Source of the DNA: a virus
Virus record (IMG/VR): IMGVR_UViG_3300042356_000801
Span: 1-64,000 of that record
Length of the DNA stretch: 64,000 nucleotides
Strand: one strand, 5' to 3'
The notes under the pieces are model-generated. The model ran no database searches. It saw only the letters and a list, made by a program, of their open reading frames with translations, and was not told where the DNA came from. This document shows, in pieces, positions 41,958-64,000 of the stretch. A program made the position numbers and the translations under genes. The first letter of the stretch is position 1, and each line of letters starts with the position of its first letter.

Positions 41958-42056
41958 TTTTAGTATTTGGTTTTAGTAAACAATGCGAAAAACCTGAATA
42001 CTTACCGTTTAGTGCAGTCTTTGTCGTTTATTATCGAAGAATACACAAGGAGCCAC

Positions 42057-45000
42057 ATGCCCTCTTCTAAGAAAAATTCCGACATTCAGTACAAGGCTGC
42101 ACCGCAAGGAATGGTGAATCTTGACGAAGCCGAAGGCATCGTTGAATGTTTTGTCGCAGGTATTGGTAACAAGGACTCAGTCGGCGATGTTTGCGCCCCT
42201 GGAGCTTTTGGCAAGAGCCTAATTAGGCGTAAGCCTCGCGTTGTTTGGGGTCATAACTGGAACGACCCAATCGGTAAAGTCCTTGATATGTATGAGGTTC
42301 AGCCAAGTGACCCTCGTCTTCCTAACAAAATGAAGGCTGCCGGAATTGGTGGCTTGTATGCCCGCGTTCAGTTCAACTTGAAGTCAGAAAAGGGCCGCGA
42401 GGCTTTTGCAAATGTGGCATTTTTTGGCGAAGAACAAGAATGGTCAATCGGCTACAAGACGATTAATGCCAAGTTTGACCCACAGATGCAAGCAAACATT
42501 CTGTATGAAGTTGAGCTTTACGAAGTTTCTCCAGTTCTTCATGGTGCCAACCAGCTGACAGGAACAATTTCAATAAAGTCCGAAGACCAGTCATCAACAG
42601 TTTTAGTAAACGAACAACCATCTATCGACGGCCTCAACATAAATGAGCTTTCTTCAGTTTTAGATGCGTTGAAGACGATTGCGTCCACCACAGATGAAAA
42701 GTGTGGACCCGGAATGCCAATGGGCATGCCTGCGCAAATGCCAATGGTGATGCCATCTGGTGGACCAGGAATGCCTTCTGTATCAAAACCAACACAACCA
42801 ACCGCCCCAAGAGAGTCCGTGAAGCCAGAAGTTCCATCAATGCCGGAAAACCCAATGCTTGTAGCAATTAGAAGAGAATTGGTCGACAGGACTGGTTCAA
42901 ATATTATTGTTCGTTCCGTAATAGAAAACATAGTTGTATTCGACAGAATTACTACTGATGGAATTTCTAGTACTTATAAACTTCCTTTCAACTATGCAAA
43001 CAATGAATTCATGTTTGGTAAGCCAGAGAAGATAAACACACAGCCAACTCCAGAGTCAAGTATCCCAACAATGCCAGGAATGCCTCAACAGTTCGGCGGG
43101 TTCGATACTGGAAAATCTTTGATTTCGTTTGATGACTTTTCCTGGGTAGGTTTTAACCAGCAGATACCAGCTCAACAAGTTGATATATCTACGCTCAACA
43201 ATGTCATCAGTAATCTTGAAAAGATTATCGAAGAGAAGTCGACATACATAATCCCCGTTGACATAAACAACGCATTTGAAGTTAAGCAAGCAATTGACCC
43301 AATTCTTGATTACTACAGAGTTGATGCAACTGTTACTGAAGACGGCATCGTTGTTAAGTCTCTTGATAACGAGTTCCTTGACGCAATGGACATTGCCACA
43401 AAGGGTGTGTTGCGCAGTATCGGCAACATGGTTGGCCGTGCGGTAGATAGACCAAACATTGGCAAAAATAGGCGTGATAGAAATCCTAACCTCGCATCAA
43501 GAGGTCGAGGAATTGGTTCCCGTGGAGCTGTAGTAAGACTCGCCGACGGAACGATGTGGGACCCAAAAACCGCACCGGACAGGAACAATAACGGCATTGT
43601 AGGTGAAGGCCTTACAGACGGTCGCGGCATGTCTCTGTCCCAGCCGGACCCAACACCAAGTGGACCCAACTCAATCGATGCTCCAAAGACACCTAAAGCC
43701 CCTAAAGCTCCAAAGAAGGCTACAAGACTTTCTTCTGGCGGAGATGATTCTTCACGTGCTCGCGACCTTGCTAAGCAACGGGAAATGGATAAGGCAAGAG
43801 GTGCTAGTGCTACAAACCCAGTAGGAAAAGAAGCCGTCGAGCAAGCCAAAAAACTTGAAAGAGAAAGAGCAGCAGCACGTCAATCTGAAACTCGTCTTTC
43901 TTCTGGGCGCGTCATAATGTCGGACGGTCAAATGGAAATATCATTTGATGAAGAAGACGGAGATGGCATCTATGACGCAACAAGAGACGGTTTCCGAATA
44001 ATTAGAAATGAACGTGGCAGCGGCGGTGGCAGAAGATTCCCAGAATCCACAGCAACGTACGGCGGGTCAGGTTTAAGTGAAGCCGAGAAAAAAGAAATTC
44101 TTGACGTCGTCAAGGATAGTTCCAACCCATTGGTTCAAAAAATATTGAAGGGTTCATTTCCTAGTAGCTTGTCCGATAAACAGTGGGCTGTTCTTAAAAG
44201 GGAATTTGAGAAGAACAAGAAGAAAACTCCTTCTGGCTATATAAGCAATGTCCGAAGCGGTGGAACAGTTGCTCCTGGAGCAAAACTTGATGGCGGAATT
44301 GCTTATCTTGAACCAGACCACGCCAACGACAAAGACTACGAAAACCTACGTGACGCAATACAGACAGCAATGCGCTCCAATCAGATGCTTCGTTTTGACT
44401 ACAGTGGAAAAAACAGAGAAGTAATTCCAGTAAAAATTGAGAAGAACAATAAAACTGGTAAGTGGAACTTGACTGCCCAAGACGACACTGGGGCAAGAAA
44501 GCTTTTTAGTCTCGACAAGATAACTCCGTCTTCGGCAGAGCGCCTTTCCTCTGGTGAGTGGACAAAAACTGATGACGGCATTGAGATGGACGCGCCGGAT
44601 ATTGATGGTGGTTACCTAATACAAGGCAACTCCAAAGATGGATTTGTAGTAACTAGATTTGCGGACGCTAGACGTAACGGTGGACAAAATGCTAACGAAT
44701 ACGAACATGACAAAGTTTTCACGTCAAGTAGCGCGGCTAAGAAGTGGGCAGAAAGAAACTACAAACTAATCAGCGAAGAAATAGGCAAAGAGGACGTAGA
44801 AATAAGAAAAGCTGACGCAGAAAGAAGCGCAGACTTTGCAGACATGACTCCAGAAGATGCCGCAGATTATGCCGCTTGGATGGACGAAGAAACCTGGAGA
44901 GACAGGGACCCAAGATTCTCCTCCGGTGAAGGATATTGGGTAGATGCTGCAGAAAAAGAAGCAGGAAATGACCCTAAAAAACTTGCTGATTTCTTGATTG

Positions 45001-48000
45001 AACAAGGAATACTTGAAGAAGACCACCCAAGAGTCAAGAAGCTCAGAAACCGTTTAACCGCCGACGACGAGTTTGAAAAAACATTTTCAATGCTTGCCGA
45101 GATGGATGCTGAAGCTGAAGCAGAAAGCAGAGCAGAAAGGCGTTCAACCCAGTTTACGGCTGTAGAAAACCCATTCGGACGTCTTTCCTCTGGTCAGAGA
45201 ACATGGATAGATGCCGCAGAGGATGAAGCAGGAGACGACCCTAGGGAGCTCGCTGATTTCTTACTTGCAAGAGGTGTTATCGACGAGGAAGACCACCCAA
45301 TAATCAAGGGGCTCAGAGATGGTCGTACAGCTGACGATGAACTCGAAAAAGCATACGAAATGCTTGCTGAGATGGATGCCGAAGACCAAGCAGAACACGC
45401 TGCACAGTTTAAGAACGCAGCCTCAGAAGTAAGCAGTCTGACCAAGCCAACAATGCCGGACCTTGATGGAATGGACGAAGACGAAGCAGGAGATGCGTTA
45501 CAACAGGCAAATGATGAGATATTAAGTTTTGCTGATGGAACAGAAAACATTGCGAGAGAATACCTTGGAGACGCAGAATACAACAAGAGGTTTGGTGGCG
45601 CAGTTCCATTAATCGAAGAGATGTCAAAAAACCATGACGGCGGCAATTACGAGCGTGAGATAGCTCTTGAAAACGCACTTGAGCGTGCTAATGGATTCAA
45701 CCTGTCAGTCGCCGGAGAGATGGAATTAGAAAGCAACAGATTCTCTTCTGGTATAGATTTTGACAAGAAAGGTGCATCAGGCCTCAGGGAGATGCGCCAT
45801 GTTGAGCGCAATCCACTCAGGATGGATTCATCTGCTGAAAAAGCAGAACGTGATGCATATGAAAAAGATGTTGCTGCCTTCATAAAGAACAATGGCTGGT
45901 TTGTTGAAGTACCGATGTACAACGGTGACCCAAAGTGGCAAAGTGAAGATTGGTATCGCGCAAGAGAGTTTGCTACAAACGTTGCAAAATTGCGTTTCGA
46001 GGACAACTACCAAAACGAAACTAATCAATTCATGCAGTTCTTTGATAAGCCAGGAAAGCCTTCAAAGAAAGACTTCTTCGCCAAGAAGGGGACCGTTGAT
46101 TACAAGTCTTGGTACATGGCTCATACCCCTCTATTGACAAGCGAAATAGACAGCGTTCTTAATTCTGACCTGTACTCTGACAATTACAAAGAGTCATACA
46201 TGAATGCTATTCGTTCATTCTTGTATGTAAACAGGCCTGAATTTGGTCCATACGGTGGAGATGACCCCGCTTACCAAGCATGGCTACAACAGTCGGGTCT
46301 TGGTTACGGTGGAAGATACAGCACGTCAGGTCCAAAATTTGACGAAATGGGCAGATTCTCTTCTGGTGCTAAGCGTGGAAGTAGAAAAGATAACTACATA
46401 AATTCTTACGAAAACCCAGAAGACTTGAAAGAAGCAATCTTTTCTGAGCTTATTTTTGCAGGAGACTATGAAGGAATGACTGCGGAAGACTTGGCCTACG
46501 CGCTAAATGTCAGGGCAGAAAGTGTTGAACCAATTCTTGAGCAAGTCAAAAAAGATGTAGGCGACGCACGGGAAGACTACGACCGCTACTTAGAGTCACA
46601 ACCAGAAATGACTGACGAAGACCTGCAGGCAATGGCGGATGACTATGCTCGCGCACAGACTGTAACCGACAAGTTTAACAACATGACTCCAGAAGAAGCA
46701 GCCGATTACGCCGCTTGGATGGACGAAGAAACCTGGAGAGACAGGGACCCAAGATTCTCCTCTGGTAGGGAACTTACCGACGAAGAAAAGCAAGAACTGG
46801 GGGCTCAATTTGCCAGAGCCCAAGACAGGCGAAAAGCTGAACTGGAAGAACGGGGGGCTCAATTTGCCAGAGCCCAAGATAGGCGGAAAGCAAAAGAAGA
46901 CCGCATCACTAAGTTCTACAGGGAGATGGCAGAGCAAAATGCAATGCTTTCAGAAATGACCCCAAGCGAACTCGCGGATTACGCCGAGCAATGGAACGAA
47001 AGCCATGCAGAAGATTCTCGTCTTTCCTCAGGTGGTATAAACTATTACGACTGGATGGTAGAAAATGGTGTTCCGCGTTCAGCACTAGACGGTGAAAGGT
47101 TCCGTGGAAGAGACGCTTACGGACACTCTTTCCATGACTACTATGCGGAAGATGCTTTTGCAAATATCGACGAAGCAGTCGTTGAAGCGCTTCTTTCTGA
47201 CAGAACACAACGAACATCTATTCAGGATTTAGCAAAAGAAGCAAGAGAACATGGGCTTCAACTGGCCACCAACCGCAGCATGCAGGAAGAGTTCTCCTGG
47301 GCTGAGGCAGTAAATCCAAAACCTGAGAGCTTGCGCGCGGAAGATTTGGTTCGTAGACCTGATGACTTAGGCTCAAACGCAAGACGCGTAGCTGAAGCAG
47401 TTGCTAACAACAGTAATGGCGCAAGAAGTGCTGCGTCTAGAGAAGACATTCTTCATTTTACCTACGATGGTAAACAGCGCTCTGTGTATCCAGAATCATT
47501 TGGGACAAGCAAAAAAGGCATTGCCTTCTTTAGAGCCTGGGACGAAACCGCAGACGATGGCAATGGTGCCTACAGAAGCTTTAATATCGACAAGATTGAG
47601 GGACTGGTTTCACACGCAATACCTCCATATGTTGAAATAGGAACAATGACCCCAGAGCCCAAGTGGAGCATTGCTGACTTCAGCATAGAAGACTGGGCAA
47701 AAATTAATGACCGGTTCTATTTTAGAAGTAGCGAAGTTGGTCGGGCGGCGTTTGATATTGAGACCGCTATTCAATGGGAGCTTGAAGGCACTGGAACAAG
47801 GGCTCCAGGTTCGATAATCGACACAGCCGAAAGAGAACTAAAGCGCCTCAAGCAAATTGCTTTCGACAAACACATCACCGAGATGGTGGAAAAGGGTGCT
47901 ACAAGTTCAAAATTCTCTCTTGACATTGAAAATGCAAAAAGATACGGTGTAAAGCCACTCAACAGAGGAAATAGACTGTCTTCTGGCGGTTCGGGCAGGT

Positions 48001-51000
48001 TCAATATTGCGGAAGCTCGTTCATTTGATGACATGTCAGACAGGGAACAGCTTGCAGTCTTCAACGGAATCAAGGACAGACTTTCAGAAAATAACCCAAG
48101 CATGGTTAGCGTCCTGGAAGACGGCGGACTCAACATCGATGGATATCTTGCAGATTTCCCTCAACTTCACCCAGACTTCTCTTCAGAAGAAAGCGGCGGA
48201 GAAAGGTTCTCTTCTGGTGGTTTTGCACCACCAAAGCCAAAAAGAGCAGCAAGAAAAGATGAAGAAGGCTTAATCGATGGCGCAAGAGTCATGCGAGGAA
48301 ATACTTTCATCGAAAGCGTTGTTGGTCAGTATGAGAGAAATCGTGGAAAACTAAGTGATGCGCAGTGGGCCAAATTGGCCGAGATTGTTGGAAGAGGTTC
48401 TAAACCAACATCAGCCGGTGCTCCAACCCCAAAAAGGCCAAGCAAGGGTCCAAGACTGGAAAAGTACTCTGGTAAGCCTCGCAAGATAATAGGCATAGAC
48501 GAAGTTGTACCATACGATTACCCTGAAGCCGAGTTTAAGCCAAACCCAGAACAGGCTGATGCGATTGACGCCATGATGACAGGCTCTGACGTAAAAGTTG
48601 GAGCTTTAGCAGCAACAGGTAAAACAACAACAGTAATAAGTTTTGCCAATCGTTTGGCCGCTCAAGACCCAAGCGCAAGAGTGCTTTATTTAGTTTTCAA
48701 CAGAGACGCCAAGAGCGATGCTGAAGCTCGCGGAATGGGTGACAATGTTTCCGTTATGACGATGGACGGTATTGCGTTTAAAGCCATGATAGGGGCTGGT
48801 GGTTCTCCAGGTCTTAGGCCTGGTCTAAAAACCAAACTGTATGAAGCCGGAAAAGCGTCCATGGATGACTCGGTTAGGTCGTACGTAGGCAAGGCAGCAT
48901 ATCTTGGAATCAAGGGAGCTTTTATACCGCGAGATGGTGATGCACCACTTGAATTAACTCCCACAGATATTTACAAAATTGTTGCTAAAGGCGTAAACGC
49001 TTACTCAATAAGTTCAGACGAAAAAATAGGACCACAGCATTTTACTGGGAAATTTAATGGACCTTTAGCAATTCCTGAAGACAGCCCAATAATGCCTAAC
49101 GTATTAAAATATGCCAACAAGATGTGGGAAGACCTGCAACAGGATAGGGACAACTTAAAAAAGCAAGGAATGCTTGGTCTTGAGTCTAACCATCTAACAA
49201 AGATGTGGGCACTGACTAAACCAGATGTTGCAAGTTTTGGTGGCACTGATGGCGTAAACGTAATCATGGTTGACGAAGCTCAGGATATTAACCCTGTGTT
49301 TGCAAAAATGATGAAAGATTCTAAGTCTGCACAAAAAATATACATTGGTGACACCAATCAGGCAATCAATGCTTGGCGTGGAGCTGATGGCTCAACCTTG
49401 GATGCAGTAGAAGCTGAATACGATATGCCGATAACCGAATCGTACAGATTCGGAGCGAAGATAGCAGGCATAGGCAACAGGTTCTTGACTTTGCTTGGGG
49501 TAAAAGAACGCATGACCGGAAAAAAGACAAGAGCAGGCAAAAACGGCTCTCGTGTTGATGTTCCAGGTGAAGTTGTTACCGAAATGAGCGTTTTAGACGC
49601 AACAATGATTCTTTGTCGCAGCAATGGTGGAGCCATAGCCGCAACCATGGAAGTAATTGAAGAGGGTGGCGGACAAAAGAAAGTTTACGGAAGCGCAAAT
49701 TTCAAAAAAGATTTACAAAACTTTATTGACAATATTGAGTGGATGCAGAATGCCGAAAAAGGCGAACCCTATTGGACAAATTCTCGCGGAGAGAGAATGA
49801 CAAGTAGGCCAGAATTCAGCGCGGACCTTGAAGGAATAACAACGTACGAAGAATTTAAAAAAGAAGTTGCTTCTGCGGACAATAACAGACTAAACATGCT
49901 CGATGGTTTATTGGAAAAGAATTCAATACCAGGACTACGTAATGCTTTAGACAATATTCTCACAAGAAAAGAAGACATAGAAAAGCTAGACCCTAACGAT
50001 TATGTAAAGATACAAACAGCACATACATCAAAAGGCCTTGAATCTGGAAAAGTGAAAATTTGGTCAGACTTCAGAAAGCCAAAATTTGACGAAGAACTCG
50101 AAGAATGGGTTATGCCAAACGAGCAGGAACTTAGGTTGTCTTATGTTGCTGTAACTAGAGCAGAAGAAGAAATTGACCTCGGTTCACTCGATTGGGTTTT
50201 TAACCACACAACAGATGCAGACGAGAAGCCAAACGCTCGTTCCGCCAGGTTGTCTTCTGGAAGAAGCATTGCAAGAAGACAGGGCAAGGGCAAGAACAGT
50301 CGTGCTCGTGGACAGCGTCCATGGAGCGATGAAGACCGTCAAAACTTTGCTGATGGCAATAGGCTCCGTGCTCAAACAATTCCAGGCAAGCGCCGTGAGG
50401 GACCTGCAGCAGCAGAATTCTCTTCTGGTGAAAGACTTTCTGCTGGTGGTTCTGGATTCTATCTCGACAACCCACCAGACGACGACTCCGATAAGTGGAT
50501 AGACATGGCAAGCGACGATTACAGGTCTATATCTGATTCATGGAGGGATTTCCCAGAAGAAACAGATGAATTCCTTTCCGACTTTTGGAGCTCTCATGAA
50601 ACATGGGGCCAAAACCCTCCATCGCCATGGGAATTTACTGCAGAAAATCTTTCAGAAATAACAGACATTTTTGAAAACACGCAAAGACCTTCAGCATACG
50701 AGCCATACTATAAGCAATTACGCGACTTAGAAGGCCTTCCAAAAGAAGACATAATTAAAGCGTTAAAACAAATACGCGAAGACGATGATGACACGCAAAT
50801 GTTTGTGGAATTCTTTAACAAAGATGTTTTTGAAGTTGCCGAAGAAAAAGAAGCACCACTTGGTAAGTATGTCCTTGAGGCATTGCAAGAATGGAACAAC
50901 CTCCCCAAATGGCTAGAGAATAGCCAAACGGACGACGGTTACACTCGCCCGTACAGGTTCTATTCTGGAGCCCGTTTTGCGCCAGATGGCGAGTCGGGTT

Positions 51001-54000
51001 CACGAATCCAAAGAAGACTTTCTTCTGGAGAATACTTTGGACCACCTCCAACCGGCAGCGGCAAGTACAACAGCAGAGAACAGGTCCGCGCATCGTTGGA
51101 TGCGTTCCACAGTGACCCGGGTACCGCAGTAATCCCGTCCGACATGCTGGGCATACTTGGTTCTGTTCCAAAGGGTAAGGAATCTCATATTCTTAATGCA
51201 GAAGTTGCAAAAAAGATTATTGCTAATCCAGATATGGAATATTCGTCAAACAACGGCTGGCCCGTTGACGCAGGCAGGCTTCTTGACTTTATTGAAGTAA
51301 ACGAAGAAGATGCCATCAGAACTCTTCGCGAAATTGGAGACGCTCAACGTATTTCTTCAATTCTTGGCATACCAGAAAAAGATGCGCAAGACATGCTTGA
51401 CGGCAAGCCCGTATACATCATGGCGGGAACGGCTGCAGACATGCTTGACGACCTCAAGGAAGGAAAACATTACCTAGAGGCTGGCCAGCTTGGTAATGAG
51501 GACGTAACAAGAATCTGGGGATTTGATGGTGCTCCAAAGTGGGTTCGCCATAGCGATATCGCTACCCCGGAATATGACCTTGACGAACAAGGCAGGGTTA
51601 ACTGGTCTAAAGAAAAATGGGACAGTCTTTCAAGAGAACAATTTGATGCTGAACTAGCAAGAGGCAAAAACCCACCAGAGCCTGTTTACGAATCTCCAGT
51701 AGAGCGTTTTAACTCGGAAGCAATTTTTGACAACCCTAAGTGGAATGCTCGTAGTGGCTCGTTCAGGAACCCAGTAGTGGATTCAGAATTTGCAGTAGCA
51801 CCACGAGCCGCAAGAAGGTCAGAACAGCTAGAGCCAACGAGAGCACCATCTCAGGCAAGAGTTGGCGAAAAAACCGTAATGGCTGACAAGGAATTTGCAG
51901 CAAAGTGGATTAAGCGTGGACATAGCGTTACTGCTTCAAACATGATGGACATTCTTGGGGTTGAAAGAGATTCTAAAAATCCAGAACCTTCAACTGAAGA
52001 GCTGAACAGGCTTATTGAAGCAATGAATGAAGTTAGTGCAAAAGTAGGACTGACTCCTTTGTCGGTCACAAGGGCACCAACAAAAAGTGACCTTAAAAAA
52101 TTGGGAATTTCCGACGAGTTTATGCATGCTCTTGTTGCTTCTGGAAAGTTTAAGAACATGAAAGAAGCAATGGCAAGTCTTGGTGATTCAAGATTTGATT
52201 CATTGGCTGCCGAATATGACTCAAGAATGCTTTCCGATGCCGCTTTGTTGAGAATAAAAGACAAAATGAACAAAGAAGGCGTTCCCAATTCAGTAGCTGT
52301 TCTGATTGAGGCAATTACTGCTTCTTTTGGCCGCAAGCAAGCATGGGAAAAGCGAATCAAAGAAGGTCGCGTATCCATCAAGGGTGACATGAAGGAAGAC
52401 GGAATGATTAGCGATGCTAAACTTTCTGAACTGCTTGGGCGAGTGAACGATGCTCTCGCAAGGTCTGGATACCCAGAAATAAGTCAAGACGAACTTTTCC
52501 CCAAGGACGAAACTGGCGGATATGTTGACAACCTTAGCTCTGCTGTTCCCGGTGCGCCAAGAATGTCTTCAGGTCAAAGGTTTGTAGCAAGAACATCTTC
52601 AAGCAGAAGAGCTGACGCTATGAACGATGCTGCTGCTCGTAGAGAAGGCAATACTTCTCGACTTTCAAGCGGAGAAAGCCTTCCATTCAAAGACGAAAAC
52701 GGGAAGCTTGTTCCAAGCAATATTAGTCAAGCCGCAAAAGATGCAACACCCGCTAATCCTGGATTCGACAGGGAGCCGCTGATTCAAAGAAAGACTCCAC
52801 ATAGAAATTTAGAAGATGTTGAAAAAGCGCTCAAGACAAGACAAGCAATTTCCGAACTTTTCACAATGAATCGCAAAAACACTCAAGGATTTAGCGTGTA
52901 CGACTACCAAGACGAACTAGTAAAAGCTGGATTCCCACTGGAAGAAATTGAAGAAATGATTGATTCGTTTGTTCGACTAGATTCCTACATTGATGATGTA
53001 GAAAGACATTTCGAAATAGCAAGAGAAAAACTGGATGAAACACTTGAAGAGATAGAAGACAATCTTTCCAAGATTGAAAGACTCAAGGGAGAAAGAGCAG
53101 ACGCAATCAAGAAGTGGGGGAACACCGAGGACAACTACTGGGTGCAAGCAATAGATGACAAAATTGCTGCTGCAATGATTAAAATCGATAAGGCATACCA
53201 AGGCGGAATCGGTGGAGAAGACGGCCGACTCGGAACACTTCATCCACAGCTTGAAGAAATGATGAGCGCGATGCCGGGCTGGACCGAAGGTCCATACGGA
53301 ATGGGTGACGACATAAATCGACGACTTCTTAAAGTTGAAGCTTCTATCAGCAAGGCTGGCGGAAAAAAGAAGGCTGTTCCAGTAACTGGAATTGACTTTG
53401 GAGTACCAGAAGGCACAAGACTTTCTTCAGGAAAAGCAGAAGAGTACTACCAAAACCTCACAAGCCATCTCATCAACATGATTGAAAAGTCACAAAAAGA
53501 TGGTGGCAAGTGGGAAGCACCGTGGCACAAGGCCGGCAATATGCCGAGAAACGCTTCTACAAAGAATATGTACTCAGGCGGAAACCTCTTTGCTCTCATG
53601 CTTGCAGCAGAAGAAAAGGGCTACGCAACTCCTCATTGGGGCGGATTCCAGCAATGGAAGAAGCTCGGCGGAAGCGTAAAGAAGGGTGAAAAAGCCACTG
53701 CGATTCTTATGCCTAAAACGATGTTTGGAGATGAAATTGACCCAGATACAGGCAAGAAGGTTCGCAAGTCTAAGGGTATCTATTTCACAACCGCACACGT
53801 GTTCAACCTCGACCAGGTTGAGGGTATTGACCGCGAAGAATTCTTGAAGCTTCCAACCGATGCTCTTACTCCAGAGCAAAGAGTCGGAAAACTTGAGGAC
53901 GCAATCAAGGAAATTGGTGCAACAATCAACACGGGAGACGGAAGCAGGGCTTACTACTCTCCTCGTGAAGACCATGTTGTTATGCCTCCATTTGAACTCT

Positions 54001-54575: not shown

Positions 54576-54624
54576 CATTCAACACACATACACCGCAATA
54601 CTTACTCAAATGATACGTTTAGAG

Positions 54625-54630
54625 TATAAT
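54625..54630 (+). promoter_or_regulatory. -10 box (TATAAT) upstream of 54663
   Basis: TATAAT with TTACTC 17 nt upstream; AGGAG RBS downstream. Confidence 0.55.
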
Positions 54631-54662
54631 TTACGGTACTTACGAATTAGGAGTCATCTAAT

Positions 54663-56339: not shown

Positions 56340-56356
56340 AGCAAGGACGACCCGAC

Positions 56357-59300
56357 ATGACGGGTACGTTTAAGACTAAAACAAGAGTCTATACATCACC
56401 TGAATTTTTTACCCCGATAACGGGCCGAAAGAGTTTTACAGACGCCGCTATCGACTTTAGACGCGGGCTTATAGAGAACTCTTCCATGGCCGTTCTTAAT
56501 GCTGACCTTTCTGTAAAGGCCGCAATGGGGGCGGGTCTTTCTGCTTCTGCTTCATCCATAGGGCAATCGTCTCAAGGAACATCTCCAAATACTGACGGTA
56601 AAAAGCGTGTCAACAAAGGCGGCGTTCCGGGGATGGTTGAGGACGAGCGTGGATTTAGGTACATGCCCGATGCAACATGGGGTCCAGACAAAGTTCTCAA
56701 ACTGTTTCCTTCTCCAGAAGAAAGACAGTCTTCTAATAAAGTTCCAAACTTTGGTTTTGTAGACAGAGAACCAATTTTTACTCCTCAACAGTTTGTTGAA
56801 CAGATGGAGAAAAAACCCAAAATCAGGATGTCTAAGTACAAAATAAATACACGTACTGGCGAACCCATAGAAGACACTGAAGTTGAGTTTGACCGAATGA
56901 GGTTTGGTAAAACTTTTAAAGTAAACCCAGACATCTCTAACGAAATAGAAGAAGACATATCTGACGAAACATCAGGAGAAATGCAAGAGAAGAGTCTTGG
57001 CTCGACCCTGAAGCAAAGAATGCCAGGTGCAACTATTGCTGGTAGAGCAGCCGCTCGCTTTGGTGTGATTATGGATGAGCTTGGGAAGATGCGTTGTCCT
57101 CCTGGGACTCCAGCGGCAAACCAATTCACTGACATGACAGGTTCTAACTGTTTTGGAATAACTCCAGGAAATATGATTTCTGAGGCAATCAACCTTGCGC
57201 AAAGACTAATTCCATCCGATGATTCAAGACGTACTGATGGTTTTACCAGAGGGGTAGCCAACTTCTTCTTCGACATGGAGAATGGCATATTTGGCAACAA
57301 CGTCTGGTATCACCCAGACGGAACCAGAATGAAGCATGGTGAATGGCGTAAGTTCCGTGAAGCTAACGGTGTTGCAAGAAACGAACGCTGGATGGTCAAC
57401 GGCGTTGAGCGTGTTTATGCAGAGATTGACGCTCAAGAGGCGCGCTTGACCGACCTTTATCAAAAGCTTGACATTGATACAAGAGACAGCAGAAAAGCAA
57501 CAAACGAACATCTATACGAGGCGTTTGAAAAACTAGAACAATCAGGCGTTATAACGGCAAAGATTGAAGGCAGGCCTACTGAGGCTGATGTTGAAGCAAT
57601 GATGACTTCACGCCTAAAAAATACCGACGCACACTGGAACACTCGCTCGAATGAAGAAAAAGCACTGTTTCTCAAAATTGAAATTCAAAGATATAGAGAG
57701 CTTGAGCGTGCGCACCTTGAGGCTTTCCTTGATGAGGTAATCAAAAATCCTGAACACATGAAGTCTATCCGGGCAGTAAGAATGCATCCAACCGGCAAAG
57801 ACAGAGCTTCGTATGGCATAGACGGCATAGACAGAAGAACCAATATGCCTTACGGTTCAATCAATATAGACATACCTAAATCAATGGAATTTGAAGACTC
57901 TCTTCTTCCAGCTCTCTCCCCTGATGAAAGACTCAGAATATGGGCAGAAGGAGGGATGTCTGAGGCACTCAGGTCTTCCACTGTAAAAGATTTCCTTGTT
58001 AACTCAAACGCCTATGCCGGTCAGATGATAGCAATGGTCGACGGCGGTCGTGGTCTTGGCCGCCATGATATGAAGCACGAGATAGCTCACTCGATTCAGG
58101 CTGCAGCCATTTTTGAACACATGAAGAGAGAACTTGATGCTAGGGGTTCTCTTGTTATGAACACCAAGAATGGACCCAAGACCATTACAAGTGTTGCCGA
58201 ACTCGATAACGACATGCTTGCTGCATTAATGATAAATGAAAACTATATGGGGATTGACCTCGATTCATTAAAAAGCCTCCGTTCTAGAGGGGACATTGTT
58301 GCGTTGTTGGGGGGTAAATATATTGATGACGTTGACAATCAATATGATGGCAAAAGGCGTGCTGCTGAAATAGGTGCAGAAATATGGGCACTTCGAAGCG
58401 CAGGTTTAATATTCGGAGATGACGTAGACGCGGCTCTTGAGTACATGGACGATGTTGCTTCTGGAAAAATAACAGCAGACAGAACAGTTGCAGACAGCGT
58501 TCTTACTAGAAGAGTTTACGATGACCATTTAGACGGTACCAGGAGAGTTCGTGAAGCTAGAGAAGCCCGCGAAGCTGCTGAAGAAGCAGCAAGGCTGGCC
58601 GAAAGTGCAGATACTCCAGATGAAGAATTTTTTGATGCTGATACCAGGGCTGCAGAAGACAGGATGTCTGATGCCAGGGAGGCATATGCTCTAGAAAAAC
58701 GTGCAGAAGTAAAAACCACAAAAGAACAAGCCAAGACAATGACAGAAGAAGAGATGATTGATTTTCTCTCTTATTCAACAGAAGGTTCTGACGCTCTTAC
58801 GGAAATGCTTGATGCAGCCGGAGAGGCCGGTGAAGAGCCGGACTGGATGAGCGTCATGGATAGGGACACTCTTGATGCGCAGTCAAAATCCGTAATAGAT
58901 GAGTGGGTAAAGCGCTTTACAGTTAGAAGAAGTCCTGAAGCCTTAGAAAAACTATTAAATATGGTTGACGACAAGCGTGAATCAAGAGGAACACTTTCTC
59001 CTGAAAAAATAGAAGAACGTCGTCATCGTGAATACCTAGAGGGTGCTACGGAACGAGCAAAGGACTTGGACTTAGAGGACCTCGTTGAGTTCTCTTCAAA
59101 CTGGGAAGAACTTGCTTCATCCGAAGGGATTGAGGCTCCAGAGCGCACTCGTAGAAAAGAAGCACGCGACATGTACAGGGATGAGTACATCAAGAGAAGA
59201 ACAGAAGGCCCTGATTCTGTTTCTAGAGAAGATGCCCGCAAAGAGTTTAATGCAAAATTAAAAGAACTGCGCAAGCCAAAAACTACTGCTGAACGCAAAA

Positions 59301-62300
59301 AACGAGACAGGGTTAAGCCAAAGAAGTTCAATAGCCACAAAGGCAAGGATGGGGCACACACTTTTGCCACACAAGAAAGAGCTCGCCTACTGGAAGGCGC
59401 AACAACAGCAGAAAAGATTGCTTTTGTTGAAATGGGCAGTGGTGAAACCGATGTAATAAACATGATGGCCGGCCATTCTGAAGGAATGGCTTCTGCACGA
59501 GCAATACAAAGAAGAAATACTCGCCTTAAAAAAAATGGCATCCTGCCTGATGGCCTCAATCAACACGAGGCTTCAGTAGAGGAACAAGTAGAAAACTTCT
59601 ATATTCCACTTCTTGAGCTGATGGATAAATCTTCACTATCTCAGATGGTGGAAATGCACCTAGACGGTAATGAGGATTCTGGACTATATATAGAAGACCT
59701 GCTTAGCGGTAATGCCCCAGAATTTACTATGGGTATAGGCACCGGAACCTTAGTAACAAACAAAACAGATTTTTCTGACGGCAAGAAGATAGTAATCCGC
59801 GTGCCAGCAGGAAGCAGAGCTTTATTACCTGACTGGTCATATCGTTCCGACTCCGACGACGGAGAACAGAAGATAATGATTCCTCCTTCAAAGCTTCACC
59901 TTGTTGAGATTCGCGATGATGGAACTGTTGTTCTTGAAGTCGGCGAACAGATGGGAACAGAAGCAACGTTAAAAACTGCAATAGAAGAAATAGGTCCTGG
60001 AAACGGTGGAGCAGGAGATGTTGCCTATAGGACAGGTCTTCAGAAAAAACTAAACAAAGTTGTCGACAAAAGAATCACAGAGCGCCGCCGACAGGGGATG
60101 TTCGACCCCGATAGTAAGTCTCCAATTGAGGAAGAAAGATTCAGCACAACAGCAGACACTGCTGCAACTGGTGCTGGGTTTATGCCGGATAGGCCTCCTT
60201 CTGCTCCAAGTCGTGCCACCACCGATAGGGGCGACATAGGAACTGGCGACTACGATGACGATTTAAGCCCAGCTGAGCGCAGATTCCAAAGGGAAGAAAG
60301 AAACAGAAGAAGAGGAAACCCAAGACTTTCTTCTGGAGCTGATACTGAAAAACTTGTTTCAATATCTGGTCCGCAAGATGCTCGCAGGGTTATTGATAGC
60401 AACCTGCCAGCATCAGTTAGAACTGAAAAAGAAGCATATACCATTTTGACTGAACTTGCAAAAATGGCTAGGGAAGCCAAGGCAAAAGGGAAAGACGCTC
60501 CTAATTACGATTTTTGCAAAGTTTCTATTCCGGGAACAAACCTATTTTGCGGTGACTCTAAGGGAATTCCTAGAAAAAAAATGCCTCAGTTTAGTGGGAA
60601 GCCAACTCCTGGTTCACCAGCAGATTCAAGACCCAAAGATAAAGATGGCGGGGTCGACGGCACGCAAGACTTTATTAAACACATGGAAGGACTGGGAGTA
60701 AAAGTCGAAGAAAAAGAAGTTCTTGCGTCAACGTTAAGAGCATCCCAGAATGAACTAGTTGGAGAAAAAGTCGCAGGGATGATGACCAATGAGAACTTTG
60801 ACCCTGCAGGTGAACCAATTTTTGTTAGCCGAGATGGTTATGTTATTGACGGTCATCATAGATGGGCCGCCCAAGTTGGTCGAGACCTTGAAGACGGAAA
60901 CCTTGGTGACCTTCCATTAAACGTAAAAGTTGTGGACATGGACATCTTGGAAGTTCTTGAAGAAGCAAACAAATTTGCTCAAGAGTTTGGTATTGCTCCC
61001 AAAACAGCAGGAAACGACGCGGCCCAAAACAGGTTATCTTCTGGTGCCAAATGGGGGCAGATGCCTTCAAACAATCAACAACTTGCTCGCCTTCTTGAGC
61101 CATCAAATAATGATGGCTTCAACGAAATATACGGCCCTCCACAGACACGCCAAGAAAGAATCACCCAGATGGCTGAGATGCAGTCAGAAGTGATGACTTC
61201 TCTGCGTGAAATGTTTGACAACGTTCCAGGAGCAGGAGATTCTCTTGGACTTGACCTGAACCACATAGACCCATACCTTGTTGACTTCATTAAGAATTCT
61301 TCAGATGAAGAAATTTATGAACTTATTTCTCAATCCGCAAAAAACCTTCATGAGAGTTTTGACGCACGACCACGAGTGCGCATGAGGCAAGACGAGCTTG
61401 ATGGGTTTGCCGCTAGCGGCAGGTACGGAAGAGAAAAATCTTTTAATAACGAGCGTTTCTCTTCTGGTCTTGTAAAAAAGGGTATAAAAGCAAGGGCCAA
61501 AGAACGTGCCATAGAAATAATTGCCGACAGAATTGGCATGGATGAAGACTCACGCGAAGTGGCAGAGATGGTGTTCAATACGGCCTCTGCACTCAAGTAC
61601 GGCCCAGAAGCAGCACTTACTCGCTTGGCTATAGACCTCGGAAGAAGAGGAAGCAGAGAACTTGCAGAAAAAACCGTAGAAGAACTTGTTAAGCGAGGAA
61701 AAATAACCGACGAACAAGCAAAATCTATTCTTTCAAAACTGGACAAGGTTGCACCAGAAGGACTTCCAGAACCATTAAAGCGCGGTGTTGGAAGAGCAGC
61801 AAGAGCAACAGCAGATGCTATTGATACTCCAGAGAACAGAGAGCGCTTAGAAAATGCCCGTGAAGCAGTCGGAGAAGCCGCTGGAAGAGCGAGAGAAGCG
61901 GTTGGTGAAGGTGCCCGCAATATTGCTGAGCGTGGCCGTGAGAGGCTTAGGAAGCTCCGTGAAAGAGACGATGCCGGAAGTCTACCTTCTGCACCGGAAG
62001 ATGTACCGTTTGGTGATTTTGACCCAGCAGATGCTCCCGTAGGAAGACTTGCTAGCGGAAGAAGATTGGATAGAAGAGTTTCTGGTTCGGATAATGGTCG
62101 CGAACGCATTATGGAAGGCGCAAACGTAACTCGCACCCGCCTAAGTAGTGGTGAGACGCCAAAGATAGACAAGCCGAAGAAGCCAAGCAGGCCAAGAGAC
62201 CCCGACAACGGACCAATGACTGGAAAGTTCATTGACATATTCCGTGGCGTTAAGTCATATCAAGAAATGCTTGACAGATATAACGAGCAAGAAGTTATTT

Positions 62301-64000
62301 TCTTTGACTACGAGACAACAGGTTTTAGCCCTACGGACGATAGGCCTGTTCAGATTGGTGCAGTAAAAATGAAGGGCGGGAAAGTCGTTGAAAGATTCAA
62401 TGTTTTTGTTAACCCCGAAAAAGAACTTAGCGACTGGTCAAAGGAAAATCTACTTAATGCTGACGGTAAACCTCTAACCAACGACTGGTTATCAGGTCAA
62501 TCTTCAGTCAACGAAGGCCACCAGCAGCTTATTGACTTCTTTGGCCCTGATGCCCTCCTTGGTGGACAGTACACGCCTTTTGACCTTGGCTTCCTTGAAG
62601 AGTCACTAAAGAACGCAGGAATTGAGTGGACCCCTGCTGGAGTCATAGACAGCAAGGCCCTTGCTGATGAACTTCTTCCAAGATGGACAGCAGATGGCGG
62701 AGATGGTCCTTTTGCTCTTAACCCAGATGGCACAAAGTACGCAACAAATAGCCTTGGACCGCTTTCTGATTATCTTGAAGTCGAACTGACAGCATGGCAT
62801 ACAGCAGACGCAGACTCTGAAGCGTCAGCAATGATTGTCCAAAAGATACTTGAGCGTGCAGCAGAAAGAGAAGACACTCCAAAACATCTTCTTGATGTTG
62901 ACAACCTTCCATCTGTTGTTGCTGAACGCAGGGCTAGACACAAGCTCGACATGGACAAGTACTTTGCCGACCTAAAGCAGTACAAGGTTGACAATGAAGC
63001 ATACGAAGCTTCTCAAACCGGAGAAAGACTTTCTTCGGGAGCAACCATGGATGACAAACTAGGGAAGACTGTCGGTATTGACGAACTTCTTGCCGACCCA
63101 ACAATGGCTGAAGAATTACGCAAAAGAAGCGCGGACATAAAAGCACTTTCTGACAGGGAAAGAGCACAAAGATTTACCGACCCTAACGACCCAGACTCTA
63201 TCTATGTAATTCACTTTGGAGCGAGCCAATTAGAAGGCGGCCAAATAGACCCTGCTCGTTCGCGAGGGCAGGTGGGTTCAAACGTCCCTGCGGCAGGAAA
63301 TACACGTTTGGTAAATGACCAGACAGCCAGATATATGGTTGGATTACGCAATACCGCAAGACGAGACCTGTCTATTCTGGAAGAAATAAAACGTCAAATG
63401 GAGACTGATGGAGTTGTTGACTTTGAGGCGATAGCAAGAACAGACCCGAAAGACTCCATGAGGGCGGGAAGAGCAAAAATATTGCTTGGTGTTAAACGTA
63501 CTGACCGTGACTACGAGCGTTCAACGTTCACGCCTCCTTACTGGAACCCTGAAAATTTTGACGCTCAAATCGCAAGCGAAAACAGAACCCTATCTAGTCT
63601 TGACAAGGTTGCCGACCAGTTAATTGCAGACGACTACCAGTACACGAGTACATACAGGGCTTCTGGATTACGAGATTTACGGAGCTCTTACGGAGGGAGG
63701 TACGCAGAAGGCGGCTCTACAGAATGGGGCGACAACTCGCCGCGCTCGTCAACTACCGGTATTCACATATTAAAAGTAAAAGTAGGCGACAACGCGATTG
63801 AGCAAAATAGCGTTGGAGAAACTCACCTTGTTGGTAAACACACCCCAGTTGCTTCACTTGTCGTGAGGGCAGATGATTATGATGATAATCCTGCTAATGA
63901 CACATGGACCGGATGGATGGATATGGCGATTGAGGCCGACATCAAGAAAGGGTCAGGTGAGAGGCTTTCTTCCGGTGCAACAGGACGTTCCCCAGGACTA
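56357..64000 (+). CDS. second giant polyvalent protein (at least 2548 aa, runs off the window): zincin, degenerate ART, ParB/Srx, DEDDh exonuclease and unknown modules separated by R[LF]SSG
   Basis: ATG 56357 after AAGGA; manual translation found no in-frame stop to 64000; HEIAH at 58076, IDGHHRWAA near 60845, FFDYETTG...PFDLGFL...WHTADAD at 62300-62815. Confidence 0.88.
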   Translation, partial: MTGTFKTKTRVYTSPEFFTPITGRKSFTDAAIDFRRGLIENSSMAVLNADLSVKAAMGAGLSASASSIGQSSQGTSPNTDGKKRVNKGGVPGMVEDERGFRYMPDATWGPDKVLKLFPSPEERQSSNKVPNFGFVDREPIFTPQQFVEQMEKKPKIRMSKYKINTRTGEPIEDTEVEFDRMRFGKTFKVNPDISNEIEEDISDETSGEMQEKSLGSTLKQRMPGATIAGRAAARFGVIMDELGKMRCPPGTPAANQFTDMTGSNCFGITPGNMISEAINLAQRLIPSDDSRRTDGFTRGVANFFFDMENGIFGNNVWYHPDGTRMKHGEWRKFREANGVARNERWMVNGVERVYAEIDAQEARLTDLYQKLDIDTRDSRKATNEHLYEAFEKLEQSGVITAKIEGRPTEADVEAMMTSRLKNTDAHWNTRSNEEKALFLKIEIQRYRELERAHLEAFLDEVIKNPEHMKSIRAVRMHPTGKDRASYGIDGIDRRTNMPYGSINIDIPKSMEFEDSLLPALSPDERLRIWAEGGMSEALRSSTVKDFLVNSNAYAGQMIAMVDGGRGLGRHDMKHEIAHSIQAAAIFEHMKRELDARGSLVMNTKNGPKTITSVAELDNDMLAALMINENYMGIDLDSLKSLRSRGDIVALLGGKYIDDVDNQYDGKRRAAEIGAEIWALRSAGLIFGDDVDAALEYMDDVASGKITADRTVADSVLTRRVYDDHLDGTRRVREAREAREAAEEAARLAESADTPDEEFFDADTRAAEDRMSDAREAYALEKRAEVKTTKEQAKTMTEEEMIDFLSYSTEGSDALTEMLDAAGEAGEEPDWMSVMDRDTLDAQSKSVIDEWVKRFTVRRSPEALEKLLNMVDDKRESRGTLSPEKIEERRHREYLEGATERAKDLDLEDLVEFSSNWEELASSEGIEAPERTRRKEARDMYRDEYIKRRTEGPDSVSREDARKEFNAKLKELRKPKTTAERKKRDRVKPKKFNSHKGKDGAHTFATQERARLLEGATTAEKIAFVEMGSGETDVINMMAGHSEGMASARAIQRRNTRLKKNGILPDGLNQHEASVEEQVENFYIPLLELMDKSSLSQMVEMHLDGNEDSGLYIEDLLSGNAPEFTMGIGTGTLVTNKTDFSDGKKIVIRVPAGSRALLPDWSYRSDSDDGEQKIMIPPSKLHLVEIRDDGTVVLEVGEQMGTEATLKTAIEEIGPGNGGAGDVAYRTGLQKKLNKVVDKRITERRRQGMFDPDSKSPIEEERFSTTADTAATGAGFMPDRPPSAPSRATTDRGDIGTGDYDDDLSPAERRFQREERNRRRGNPRLSSGADTEKLVSISGPQDARRVIDSNLPASVRTEKEAYTILTELAKMAREAKAKGKDAPNYDFCKVSIPGTNLFCGDSKGIPRKKMPQFSGKPTPGSPADSRPKDKDGGVDGTQDFIKHMEGLGVKVEEKEVLASTLRASQNELVGEKVAGMMTNENFDPAGEPIFVSRDGYVIDGHHRWAAQVGRDLEDGNLGDLPLNVKVVDMDILEVLEEANKFAQEFGIAPKTAGNDAAQNRLSSGAKWGQMPSNNQQLARLLEPSNNDGFNEIYGPPQTRQERITQMAEMQSEVMTSLREMFDNVPGAGDSLGLDLNHIDPYLVDFIKNSSDEEIYELISQSAKNLHESFDARPRVRMRQDELDGFAASGRYGREKSFNNERFSSGLVKKGIKARAKERAIEIIADRIGMDEDSREVAEMVFNTASALKYGPEAALTRLAIDLGRRGSRELAEKTVEELVKRGKITDEQAKSILSKLDKVAPEGLPEPLKRGVGRAARATADAIDTPENRERLENAREAVGEAAGRAREAVGEGARNIAERGRERLRKLRERDDAGSLPSAPEDVPFGDFDPADAPVGRLASGRRLDRRVSGSDNGRERIMEGANVTRTRLSSGETPKIDKPKKPSRPRDPDNGPMTGKFIDIFRGVKSYQEMLDRYNEQEVIFFDYETTGFSPTDDRPVQIGAVKMKGGKVVERFNVFVNPEKELSDWSKENLLNADGKPLTNDWLSGQSSVNEGHQQLIDFFGPDALLGGQYTPFDLGFLEESLKNAGIEWTPAGVIDSKALADELLPRWTADGGDGPFALNPDGTKYATNSLGPLSDYLEVELTAWHTADADSEASAMIVQKILERAAEREDTPKHLLDVDNLPSVVAERRARHKLDMDKYFADLKQYKVDNEAYEASQTGERLSSGATMDDKLGKTVGIDELLADPTMAEELRKRSADIKALSDRERAQRFTDPNDPDSIYVIHFGASQLEGGQIDPARSRGQVGSNVPAAGNTRLVNDQTARYMVGLRNTARRDLSILEEIKRQMETDGVVDFEAIARTDPKDSMRAGRAKILLGVKRTDRDYERSTFTPPYWNPENFDAQIASENRTLSSLDKVADQLIADDYQYTSTYRASGLRDLRSSYGGRYAEGGSTEWGDNSPRSSTTGIHILKVKVGDNAIEQNSVGETHLVGKHTPVASLVVRADDYDDNPANDTWTGWMDMAIEADIKKGSGERLSSGATGRSPGL

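Follow-up and report, generated by a model that had tools for sequence, protein, structure and literature searches.

Why should the same five residues, R[LFM]SSG, recur along two giant proteins encoded in the head region of a phage? The question arises from IMG/VR virus record IMGVR_UViG_3300042356_000801 (91,169 bp), the first 64 kb of which form the stretch analyzed here (hereafter the window). On the + strand, the portal gene is followed by three open reading frames (ORFs), A, B and C, placed between the portal gene and the capsid protein gene, the latter lying beyond the window. ORF A is fused to a protease-scaffold protein, and both ORF A and ORF C are punctuated by the peptide, which occurs in the tape measure protein as well. 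Judged from comparative evidence on metagenomic sequences, the reading of the peptide as a cleavage site is well supported. Going one step further, we tentatively propose that R[LFM]SSG may be a proteolytic junction signal, cut by a zincin that resides in the N-terminal carrier part of ORF C, and that about 25 packaged modules would be freed in this way; as the cutting enzyme, this zincin is favored, not strongly, on the grounds of its sequence and predicted fold. The genes concerned are the following (aa, amino acids; E, expect value).

39885..41957, + strand: portal protein, 690 aa, PHROG portal match (E 3e-61)
41967..54575, + strand: ORF A, 4202 aa, a carrier module followed by 19 junction sites that yield 17 pieces of at least 50 aa
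54663..56339, + strand: ORF B, 558 aa, acidic/basic repeats and a conserved C-terminal half, without the junction peptide
56357..65107 of the record (window part to 64000), + strand: ORF C, 2917 aa in the full record, a 1322-aa carrier followed by 8 junctions
71087-72454 of the record (= L023:15087-16457), beyond the window: capsid protein with a delta domain of ~150 aa
18999..24128, - strand: tape measure protein, 1709 aa, downstream of the sheath, tube and chaperone genes

Positions and coding of the junction peptide

The 16 copies of R[LFM]SSG in ORF A and the 6 in the window part of ORF C that an earlier note on this DNA had listed are all found where it placed them, as are the variants EFSSG, RLSAG and RFYSG in ORF A and RLASG in ORF C. 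A seventh copy in ORF C, at 64391 of the record, lies past the window end. The sites within the window are given below, together with the predicted local distance difference test (pLDDT) score where a structure was modeled.

43725..43739, + strand: RLSSG, ORF A residue 587
43893..43907, + strand: RLSSG, ORF A residue 643
44541..44555, + strand: RLSSG, ORF A residue 859
44913..44927, + strand: RFSSG, ORF A residue 983
45180..45194, + strand: RLSSG, ORF A residue 1072
45738..45752, + strand: RFSSG, ORF A residue 1258
46353..46367, + strand: RFSSG, ORF A residue 1463
46752..46766, + strand: RFSSG, ORF A residue 1596
47019..47033, + strand: RLSSG, ORF A residue 1685
47973..47987, + strand: RLSSG, ORF A residue 2003, pLDDT <50
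48204..48218, + strand: RFSSG, ORF A residue 2080, pLDDT <50, ~11 residues ahead of the helicase fold
50247..50261, + strand: RLSSG, ORF A residue 2761, pLDDT <50, 5 residues past the helicase fold
50415..50447, + strand: tandem variants EFSSG (ORF A residue 2817) and RLSAG (2823)
50955..50969, + strand: variant RFYSG, ORF A residue 2997
51015..51029, + strand: RLSSG, ORF A residue 3017
52560..52574, + strand: RMSSG, ORF A residue 3532
52659..52673, + strand: RLSSG, ORF A residue 3565
53418..53432, + strand: RLSSG, ORF A residue 3818, immediately ahead of the ArdC module, conserved in relatives G001 and G005
60323..60337, + strand: RLSSG, ORF C residue 1323
61031..61045, + strand: RLSSG, ORF C residue 1559
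61454..61468, + strand: RFSSG, ORF C residue 1700
62045..62059, + strand: variant RLASG, ORF C residue 1897
62138..62152, + strand: RLSSG, ORF C residue 1928
63026..63040, + strand: RLSSG, ORF C residue 2224
63962..63976, + strand: RLSSG, ORF C residue 2536
24003..24017, - strand: RLSSG, tape measure residue 38, where relatives have [RKQ]LSS[GS]
22377..22448, - strand: RLSSG (residue 561) and RMSTG (580) in the Gly/Pro-rich middle of the tape measure

Such a density is far from what composition predicts. The estimate of well under one chance match made in the earlier note is borne out by expected counts of 0.016 for ORF A and 0.011 for ORF C, and 2000 shuffles gave at most 2 and 1 copies of R[LFM]SSG, respectively. 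Of 18 SSG tripeptides in ORF A, 17 follow L, F or M and 16 follow R[LFM]. In the whole record there are 25 strict sites (about 0.04 expected), distributed over ORF A, ORF C and the tape measure, the last of which holds 2 (0.0096 expected); elsewhere in the 91 kb the strict peptide was absent from six-frame ORFs of at least 60 aa. Beyond the five residues no preference was noticed, save for a small or charged residue following the Gly. The tape measure, which lies on the - strand of the window together with the large terminase and sheath genes, was identified from the gene order and the PHROG match of the sheath, from glycine-zipper matches, and from alignment with the tape measures of relatives.

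The peptide had been said to be written in widely varying codons. Every codon family is indeed used, but the codons show a TCT/TTC bias in this genome: the two Ser positions are encoded by TCT at 17/25 and 16/25 sites (background 29%), and Phe by TTC in 6/6 cases. An identical string of 14 nucleotides (nt), AGACTTTCTTCTGG, is common to five junction sites. The junctions at 44913 and 46752 have the same 12-residue upstream flank, WMDEETWRDRDP, ahead of RFSSG, and duplications of module ends therefore stop at the peptide. The codon bias and the five identical 14-nt strings speak for a mainly DNA-level signal, namely a short homology that promotes module shuffling and leaves the peptide as a by-product. 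We regard this explanation as scarcely credible, given that Leu, Phe and Met alternate at one position of the peptide, that a site in the tape measure has no role in shuffling, and that the peptide codons of relatives span all families, with both Ser families, all Leu families and both Arg families in use for the same peptide. Selection therefore acts on the peptide, accompanied by some local homogenization at the DNA level.

Modules, linkers and lineage variants

The stretches between junctions correspond to modules, some of which can be assigned to known families.

41967..43724, + strand: carrier module A01, ORF A residues 1-586, S78 protease and a scaffold-like part
42138..42569, + strand: Peptidase_S78 (HK97-type prohead protease), ORF A residues 58-201, Pfam PF04586, E 4.7e-9
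43578..43613, + strand: leader-like element DRNNNGIVGEGL, ~45 aa ahead of the first junction
48219..50246, + strand: UvrD-type helicase module, ORF A residues 2085-2760, a junction on either side, Pfam (2193-2735) and PHROG matches
53433..54572, + strand: complete ArdC-like module, ArdC-N and MPTase zincin (HELVH), PHROG anti-restriction match
62153..63025, + strand: DEDDh/RNase_T exonuclease module, ORF C residues 1933-2223, Pfam RNase_T 1981-2160

In the ArdC-like module both Pfam matches exceed the cut-off, with ArdC-N (PF08401) at ORF A residues 3826-3930 (E 6e-26, 91.6 bits) and MPTase-PolyVal (PF18818) at 3976-4100 (E 7e-43, 146.1 bits). Counted together, ORF A holds S78, WYL (weak), UvrD, ArdC-N and MPTase, and ORF C holds a zincin and RNase_T, which is a domain set of the polyvalent type. 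The earlier claim that no recognizable domain is split by the motif holds for all Pfam domains found, but its list of domains has to be shortened. A Pfam search of ten unannotated modules at E <=0.1 gave one weak WYL match and noise, and ParB, ART and a second WYL were not detected by Pfam, at that threshold on those modules included. The last module of ORF C (record 64400-65107; L023:8405-9107) matches the C-terminal parts of MuF-type PHROGs annotated as 'head morphogenesis' (E 2.5e-53) and 'minor head protein' (6e-24).

Comparison with relatives places the peptide at the borders of units that move (G and L numbers are our working labels for genomes and loci). Modules are present, absent or relocated among G000-G005, and the DEDDh module recurs in the ORF A-type protein of G005, in the third giant ORF of G002 and in a 3707-aa ORF of G004, with the local peptide on both sides in all four proteins and genomes. 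Of the ends of BLAST high-scoring segment pairs to non-colinear relatives, 38.7% come within 15 aa of a site, compared to 14.1 +/- 5.1% for random placement. The flanks of the sites are more hydrophilic than random positions (p about 4e-4). Furthermore, an AlphaFold2 model of ORF A residues 1990-2831, built on a 15-row alignment, returned the helicase fold as a block of pLDDT 65-94 over model residues ~106-767, while all five sites around it fall within segments of pLDDT <50. The position in linkers that the earlier note had expected is thus what the model predicts, and the peptide, as modeled, sits in disordered linkers.

Is the peptide conserved in homologues? It is, with a change from lineage to lineage. 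ORF B as a query led to 13 related loci, and the S78 domain as a marker to 550 collection stretches that encode a relative, of which the best 80 loci were kept. In most of these 80 the protease ORF runs on as a giant ORF punctuated by [LFM]SSG, and the residue ahead of this core is lineage-biased, being R, K, G, S or mixed. The resulting versions are RLSSG, KLSSG, GLSSG and SLSSG, to which G004 adds GSKS[ST]T, whose 22 strict sites are spread over five giant ORFs, the tape measure and a 551-aa ORF. At homologous junctions RLSSG, GLSSG and SKSTT fall into register with one another. In its middle, the tape measure contains RLSSG in G005, RFSSG in G001, GLSSG in G006 (G-type), GFSSG in G015 (mixed), and GSKSTT and GSKSAT in G004, so that the tape measure version follows each lineage's own peptide.

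Lineage-specific variants could, in principle, mirror different hosts, if the peptide were read by a protease of the actinobacterial host. Cargo and tape measure do both arrive in the host cell, and host trimming of virion proteins has a precedent in phage 80alpha, where a sequence imitating ribosomal protein L27 is the point at which a host protease trims the capsid and scaffold proteins. However, close relatives differ in peptide (ORF B is 73% identical between R-type and G-type), peptide classes are mixed within one genome, and we know of no host enzyme with the specificity of this peptide. A host protease as the reader is, in our judgment, very improbable.

Relatives in which the modules are not fused show what the giant proteins were built upon. 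In them the protease-scaffold is a stand-alone protein of 491-1015 aa. Several lineages in which it measures 707-1015 aa and is followed by an ORF B homologue and separate mid-size genes have no punctuating peptide. The core shared by fused and unfused lineages consists of the portal, the protease-scaffold (A01), ORF B, a protein resembling the N-terminus of ORF C, a ~667-aa protein and the capsid protein, from which it follows that the giant parts were added onto the C-termini of two head-region proteins. ORF B, for which no Pfam or PHROG family was found, carries three acidic-then-basic repeats (..TDEEK..KKRKARGLA[AS]T[ST]NGFKG..) and Cys clusters; its C-terminal half is conserved even among peptide-less relatives. 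It is a core head-region gene, kept in unfused relatives too, and may encode a scaffold or a protease regulator. The leader-like element, which in relatives reads DGDxDGIV.EGTPF.RP, precedes the first junction in fused lineages and is found near the N-terminus of 4/5 unfused giant ORFs in G004 (L040-L043), and is a candidate capsid-targeting signal for cargo strings. In one lineage with a 1015-aa protease protein (L119/L137), LSSG is missing and [RK]TGSR occurs four times (0.08 expected), while its ORF C-like protein has two different HExxH sites; from these four sites only, [RK]TGSR may be another code. A DGFASR-type peptide searched for in locus L191 was not found.

The nearest cultured phages are the Gordonia phages GMA6 and Chidiebere and the Brevibacterium phage Cantare, at 39-49% identity in the portal, protease and capsid proteins. 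In these cultured relatives (Chidiebere, L057, 9181-25151), the region between portal and protease is occupied by separate genes, namely those for an RNA ligase, a VIP2-like ADP-ribosyltransferase, a 971-aa helix-turn-helix protein, lysins and a second, 218-aa 'head maturation protease'. These genes are the unfused counterpart of the cargo strings, and no recurrent motif was found in the separately encoded cargo proteins of Chidiebere, apart from VFSSG in the capsid protein. WhiB genes are carried by all relatives examined; here one lies at 78943-79158 of the record, and G001, G004, G005 and G009 have WhiB too, in up to four copies. The WhiB genes and the nearest cultured relatives therefore identify the phage as an actinophage, and with a G+C content of 46% its host is probably a low-GC freshwater actinobacterium.

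The processing-site reading and its candidate enzymes

The lineage-wide change of the peptide, its position at module borders and in linkers, and its absence where modules are not fused together fit a processing site. The earlier note had inferred functional punctuation of this kind, and that part of its inference stands. It is also possible that the peptide is a docking, ejection or modification tag (for instance for Ser phosphorylation or glycosylation), or a selected flexible hinge, for proteins that exit through the tail. The tail tube has to be traversed by cargo and tape measure alike, the sites are exposed and rich in Ser and Thr, and cleavage is inferred only. Nevertheless, a hinge requires neither strict identity over five residues nor switching across a lineage, the capsid protein as the obvious docking partner is 74-95% identical across lineages with different peptides, and the peptide is found only where modules are fused, as a separator predicts. 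We therefore consider a tag or hinge improbable and continue with the peptide as a cleavage site.

If the peptide is cut, which enzyme would cut it? The candidate that we favor lies in the carrier of ORF C.

57554..58471, + strand: zincin, ORF C residues ~400-705, HEIAH at 58076-58090, lethal factor/Pro-Pro endopeptidase-like fold

Its motifs RH..HExxH..Q, GxY and E..E are invariant, and H574, E575, H578, Y655, E671 and E675 (ORF C numbering) are invariant in 11 sequences, the Glu and Tyr being candidates for M34-like residues. The AlphaFold2 model of the zincin (pLDDT 70.6) aligns with the catalytic domain of lethal factor (1yqy_A 580-775) with a VIA Z of 10.0 and a root-mean-square deviation of 3.4 A over 164 residues; the next VIA rows are PPEP-3 (Z 6.8) and PPEP-2 (Z 6.6), and other zincins also rank. 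In BFVD the model finds matches named 'endopeptidase family M34', 'Lethal factor' and, from a mycobacteriophage, 'MuF-like minor capsid protein'. Between them, the Atlas feature search and this viral structure library lead to Pro-Pro endopeptidase, M34, 'Lethal factor', MuF-like minor capsid proteins and a 'capsid maturation protease' of mycobacteriophages. The zincin profile is present in every peptide-bearing record that covers ORF C, and was not found in the peptide-less G010, G011 and G012 nor in unfused head regions. Zincin identity is 0.41 within a peptide class and 0.31 between classes, and the residue preceding HExxH differs by class, being K or F in the basic, L in the S, S or Y in the G and Y in the GSKS[ST]T class; for all these associations, common descent and the location of the zincin within the cargo-bearing protein are confounders.

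Several observations weigh against the zincin as the reader of the peptide. Foldseek of the model against PDB gave no match at E <=0.001, ORF C had no ATLF or Peptidase_M34 Pfam match at E <=0.05, and sequence searches of PDB with the ORF C carrier and with a profile of the zincin alignment found no zincin. All of the evidence is comparative and drawn from related phages, which makes it phylogenetically non-independent, and the cleavage products are predicted ones. The association of the zincin with the peptide may be trivial, the zincin being part of a carrier found only in cargo-bearing lineages, and the zincin could itself be an injected effector. Moreover, the [LFM]SSG core is constant though the zincins are only 28-41% identical, which a conserved S78 would suit better, and the capsid junction V[YF]SA and the VFSSG of Chidiebere resemble this core. 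Finally, the route of a capsid-borne enzyme to the tape measure is left unexplained.

Part of these objections leads to the S78 prohead protease at the head of ORF A, which would cut the peptide inside the procapsid during maturation and so free the cargo. This enzyme is present with its catalytic His and Ser intact, fused to the cargo string and universal in the family, its catalytic-motif segments WGHNW and EWSIGY are invariant in the protease alignment, and a conserved enzyme would match a conserved [LFM]SSG core. The junction between the capsid delta domain and N-arm reads V[YF]SA here and VFSSG in Chidiebere, and assemblin-fold relatives prefer a hydrophobic residue two positions ahead of a small or acidic P1. 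The herpesvirus protease site, for example, is (V/L/I)-X-A↓S, and that of T4 gp21 is L/I-x-E. A prohead protease of another phage, gp245 of SPN3US, cuts at AXE (PMC10052503).

On the other hand, no strict site is found in the capsid protein, the portal, ORF B or the S78 carrier, and the capsid junction NVKDV[YF]SALP[ST]GT is the same in the R-type, G-type and GSKS[ST]T lineages while the peptide switches. The tape measure carries the code yet never enters the procapsid, the S78 domains of peptide-less lineages are still 78-83% identical, and the cargo ORFs of G004 are not fused to S78. Nor does S78 clearly track the peptide classes: its identity is 0.84 both within and between them, the 1 to 6 columns that separate classes lie for the most part in the fringes of the domain, and a single fringe column separates the basic from the G and S classes, although a few S78 substitutions could still shift one subsite. 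The earlier note had made S78 the reader inside the procapsid, a role that the missing capsid site, the tape measure sites, the retention of S78 without the peptide and its equal identity within and between peptide classes do not bear out, and we now hold it to be rather unlikely. In the capsid protein itself, which has no [LFM]SSG, only HLSSR (~residue 93) and VYSAL (~142) were seen, and [HQ]L[ST]SRE occurs in the delta domain at ~residue 93 in all LSSG lineages and is absent from G004.

A second zincin, the ArdC-type MPTase at the end of ORF A, could cut the junctions after injection. It has the MPTase-PolyVal match given above (E 7e-43), one copy is present in every well-covered peptide-bearing genome, no complete peptide-bearing genome lacking it was found, and processing of polyvalent proteins by zincins was proposed in general terms by Iyer et al. 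(PMC5512222). However, the module is a complete ArdC, which in phiCbK, pelagiphages and cyanophages, all of them phages with no polyproteins, is a stand-alone anti-restriction protein of ~290 aa, and two partial G-type records, G002 and G003, yielded no MPTase although the two giant ORFs of each are complete. This makes the MPTase a quite improbable reader.

With the zincin of ORF C as the preferred enzyme, the following course of events could be envisaged. Two head-internal carriers, the S78 protease-scaffold of ORF A and the 1322-aa N-terminal module of ORF C, would have acquired C-terminal cargo strings that include a helicase, ArdC, a DEDDh exonuclease and many modules without family, each joined to the next by the peptide in a disordered linker. 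The carriers would load the strings into the capsid, where the prohead protease would keep its usual job on the capsid protein. A phage-encoded, sequence-specific endopeptidase, most likely the zincin, would then cut every junction into about 25 separate proteins, and the tape measure would be cut too. From the comparisons given above we infer that the strings are packaged and cleaved, and likewise the enzyme, the scissile bond and the time of the cut (in the capsid or after ejection). Cutting before packaging would detach the cargo, and a tape measure cut ahead of tail assembly could not serve its function, so a single enzyme serving both would be most easily pictured as acting after ejection or in the finished particle.

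A more specific version may be imagined, in which each lineage pairs a private peptide (RLSSG, KLSSG, GLSSG, SLSSG, GSKS[ST]T and possibly others) with a private protease, the zincin is injected within the string, and the polyproteins, like the tape measure, are threaded through the tail as single chains and cut into some 25 effectors only after the zincin has refolded in the new host. Such a scheme is doubtful, and if true it would unite, in a phage, polyprotein expression with a pore translocation like that of lethal factor.

Known systems and biological meaning

Lethal factor and the Pro-Pro endopeptidases (MEROPS M34) recognize long, strict motifs in extended peptides and cut there, and the action of lethal factor follows its unfolding through a narrow pore. 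The likeness of the ORF C zincin to this family consists of HExxH, the downstream Tyr and Glu, and the predicted fold; it differs by having no sequence-level similarity and by a spacing from HExxH to Tyr/Glu that is about twice as long. Regarding the overall strategy, a parallel is offered by the polyproteins of eukaryotic RNA viruses, in which one ORF codes for many proteins and proteases belonging to the polyprotein set (3C, NS3, NIa) act at short junction motifs that co-evolve with them. In contrast to those viruses, here we have a DNA phage, an apparent virion cargo instead of a replication machinery, and modules that are accessory and freely shuffled.

A close parallel is offered by polyvalent proteins (PMC5512222), which are giant multi-domain proteins encoded beside virion genes, with shuffled ArdC-N, MPTase zincin, helicase and nuclease domains. 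Their signature domains ArdC-N and MPTase-PolyVal are present here, with architectures that vary by shuffling. Polyvalent proteins are predicted to travel with the DNA, and the gene position in our record would support such delivery. Iyer et al. (2017) predicted processing by zincin or assemblin-like peptidases and named no junction site (PMC5512222). Unlike in polyvalent proteins, a strict peptide is found here at every border, varies with the lineage and extends to the tape measure. Furthermore, the assemblin-like protease is N-terminal here and reported to be always C-terminal in polyvalent proteins (PMC5512222), and the candidate enzyme is a lethal-factor-like zincin instead of their MPTase.

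Head proteases of the T4 and phiKZ types act on short motifs of packaged proteins. In T4 (gp21) and SPN3US (gp245; PMC10052503), one short motif in many packaged proteins is cut by a phage protease at head maturation, and cargo is targeted by a removable part. There, however, mostly one N-terminal propeptide is removed per separate protein and the capsid protein has the motif too, whereas here there are ~27 internal junctions in two polyproteins, and the motif is missing from the capsid protein but present in a tail protein. The polymorphic MuF toxins of temperate phages (Jamet et al. 2017, PMC5576092) share with our case a head-internal carrier fused to variable C-terminal effectors, but their C-terminal domains number one or a few and are not separated by a repeated junction code. 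Phage_Mu_F (PF04233) gave no Pfam match on ORF C.

In literature searches, no published description of the peptide or of a comparable junction code was found, and nothing relevant to it turned up in papers about freshwater actinophages or about head proteases cleaving tape measures. If the peptide is a cut site, two or three genes would suffice for one phage to deliver dozens of separate proteins, and for tailed phages no such polyprotein strategy has been documented. With the junction code, the borders of about 25 modules per genome can be drawn exactly, and the majority of these modules have no known family. With the protease marker on 550 collection stretches, from WhiB-carrying phages that probably infect abundant freshwater Actinobacteria, these modules form a catalogue of candidate anti-defense and takeover effectors. 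Lineage-specific peptides would imply co-evolving pairs of protease and site, that is, natural orthogonal pairs useful in protein engineering, and the sites in the tape measure point to an unrecognized processing step in the biology of the tail and of ejection.

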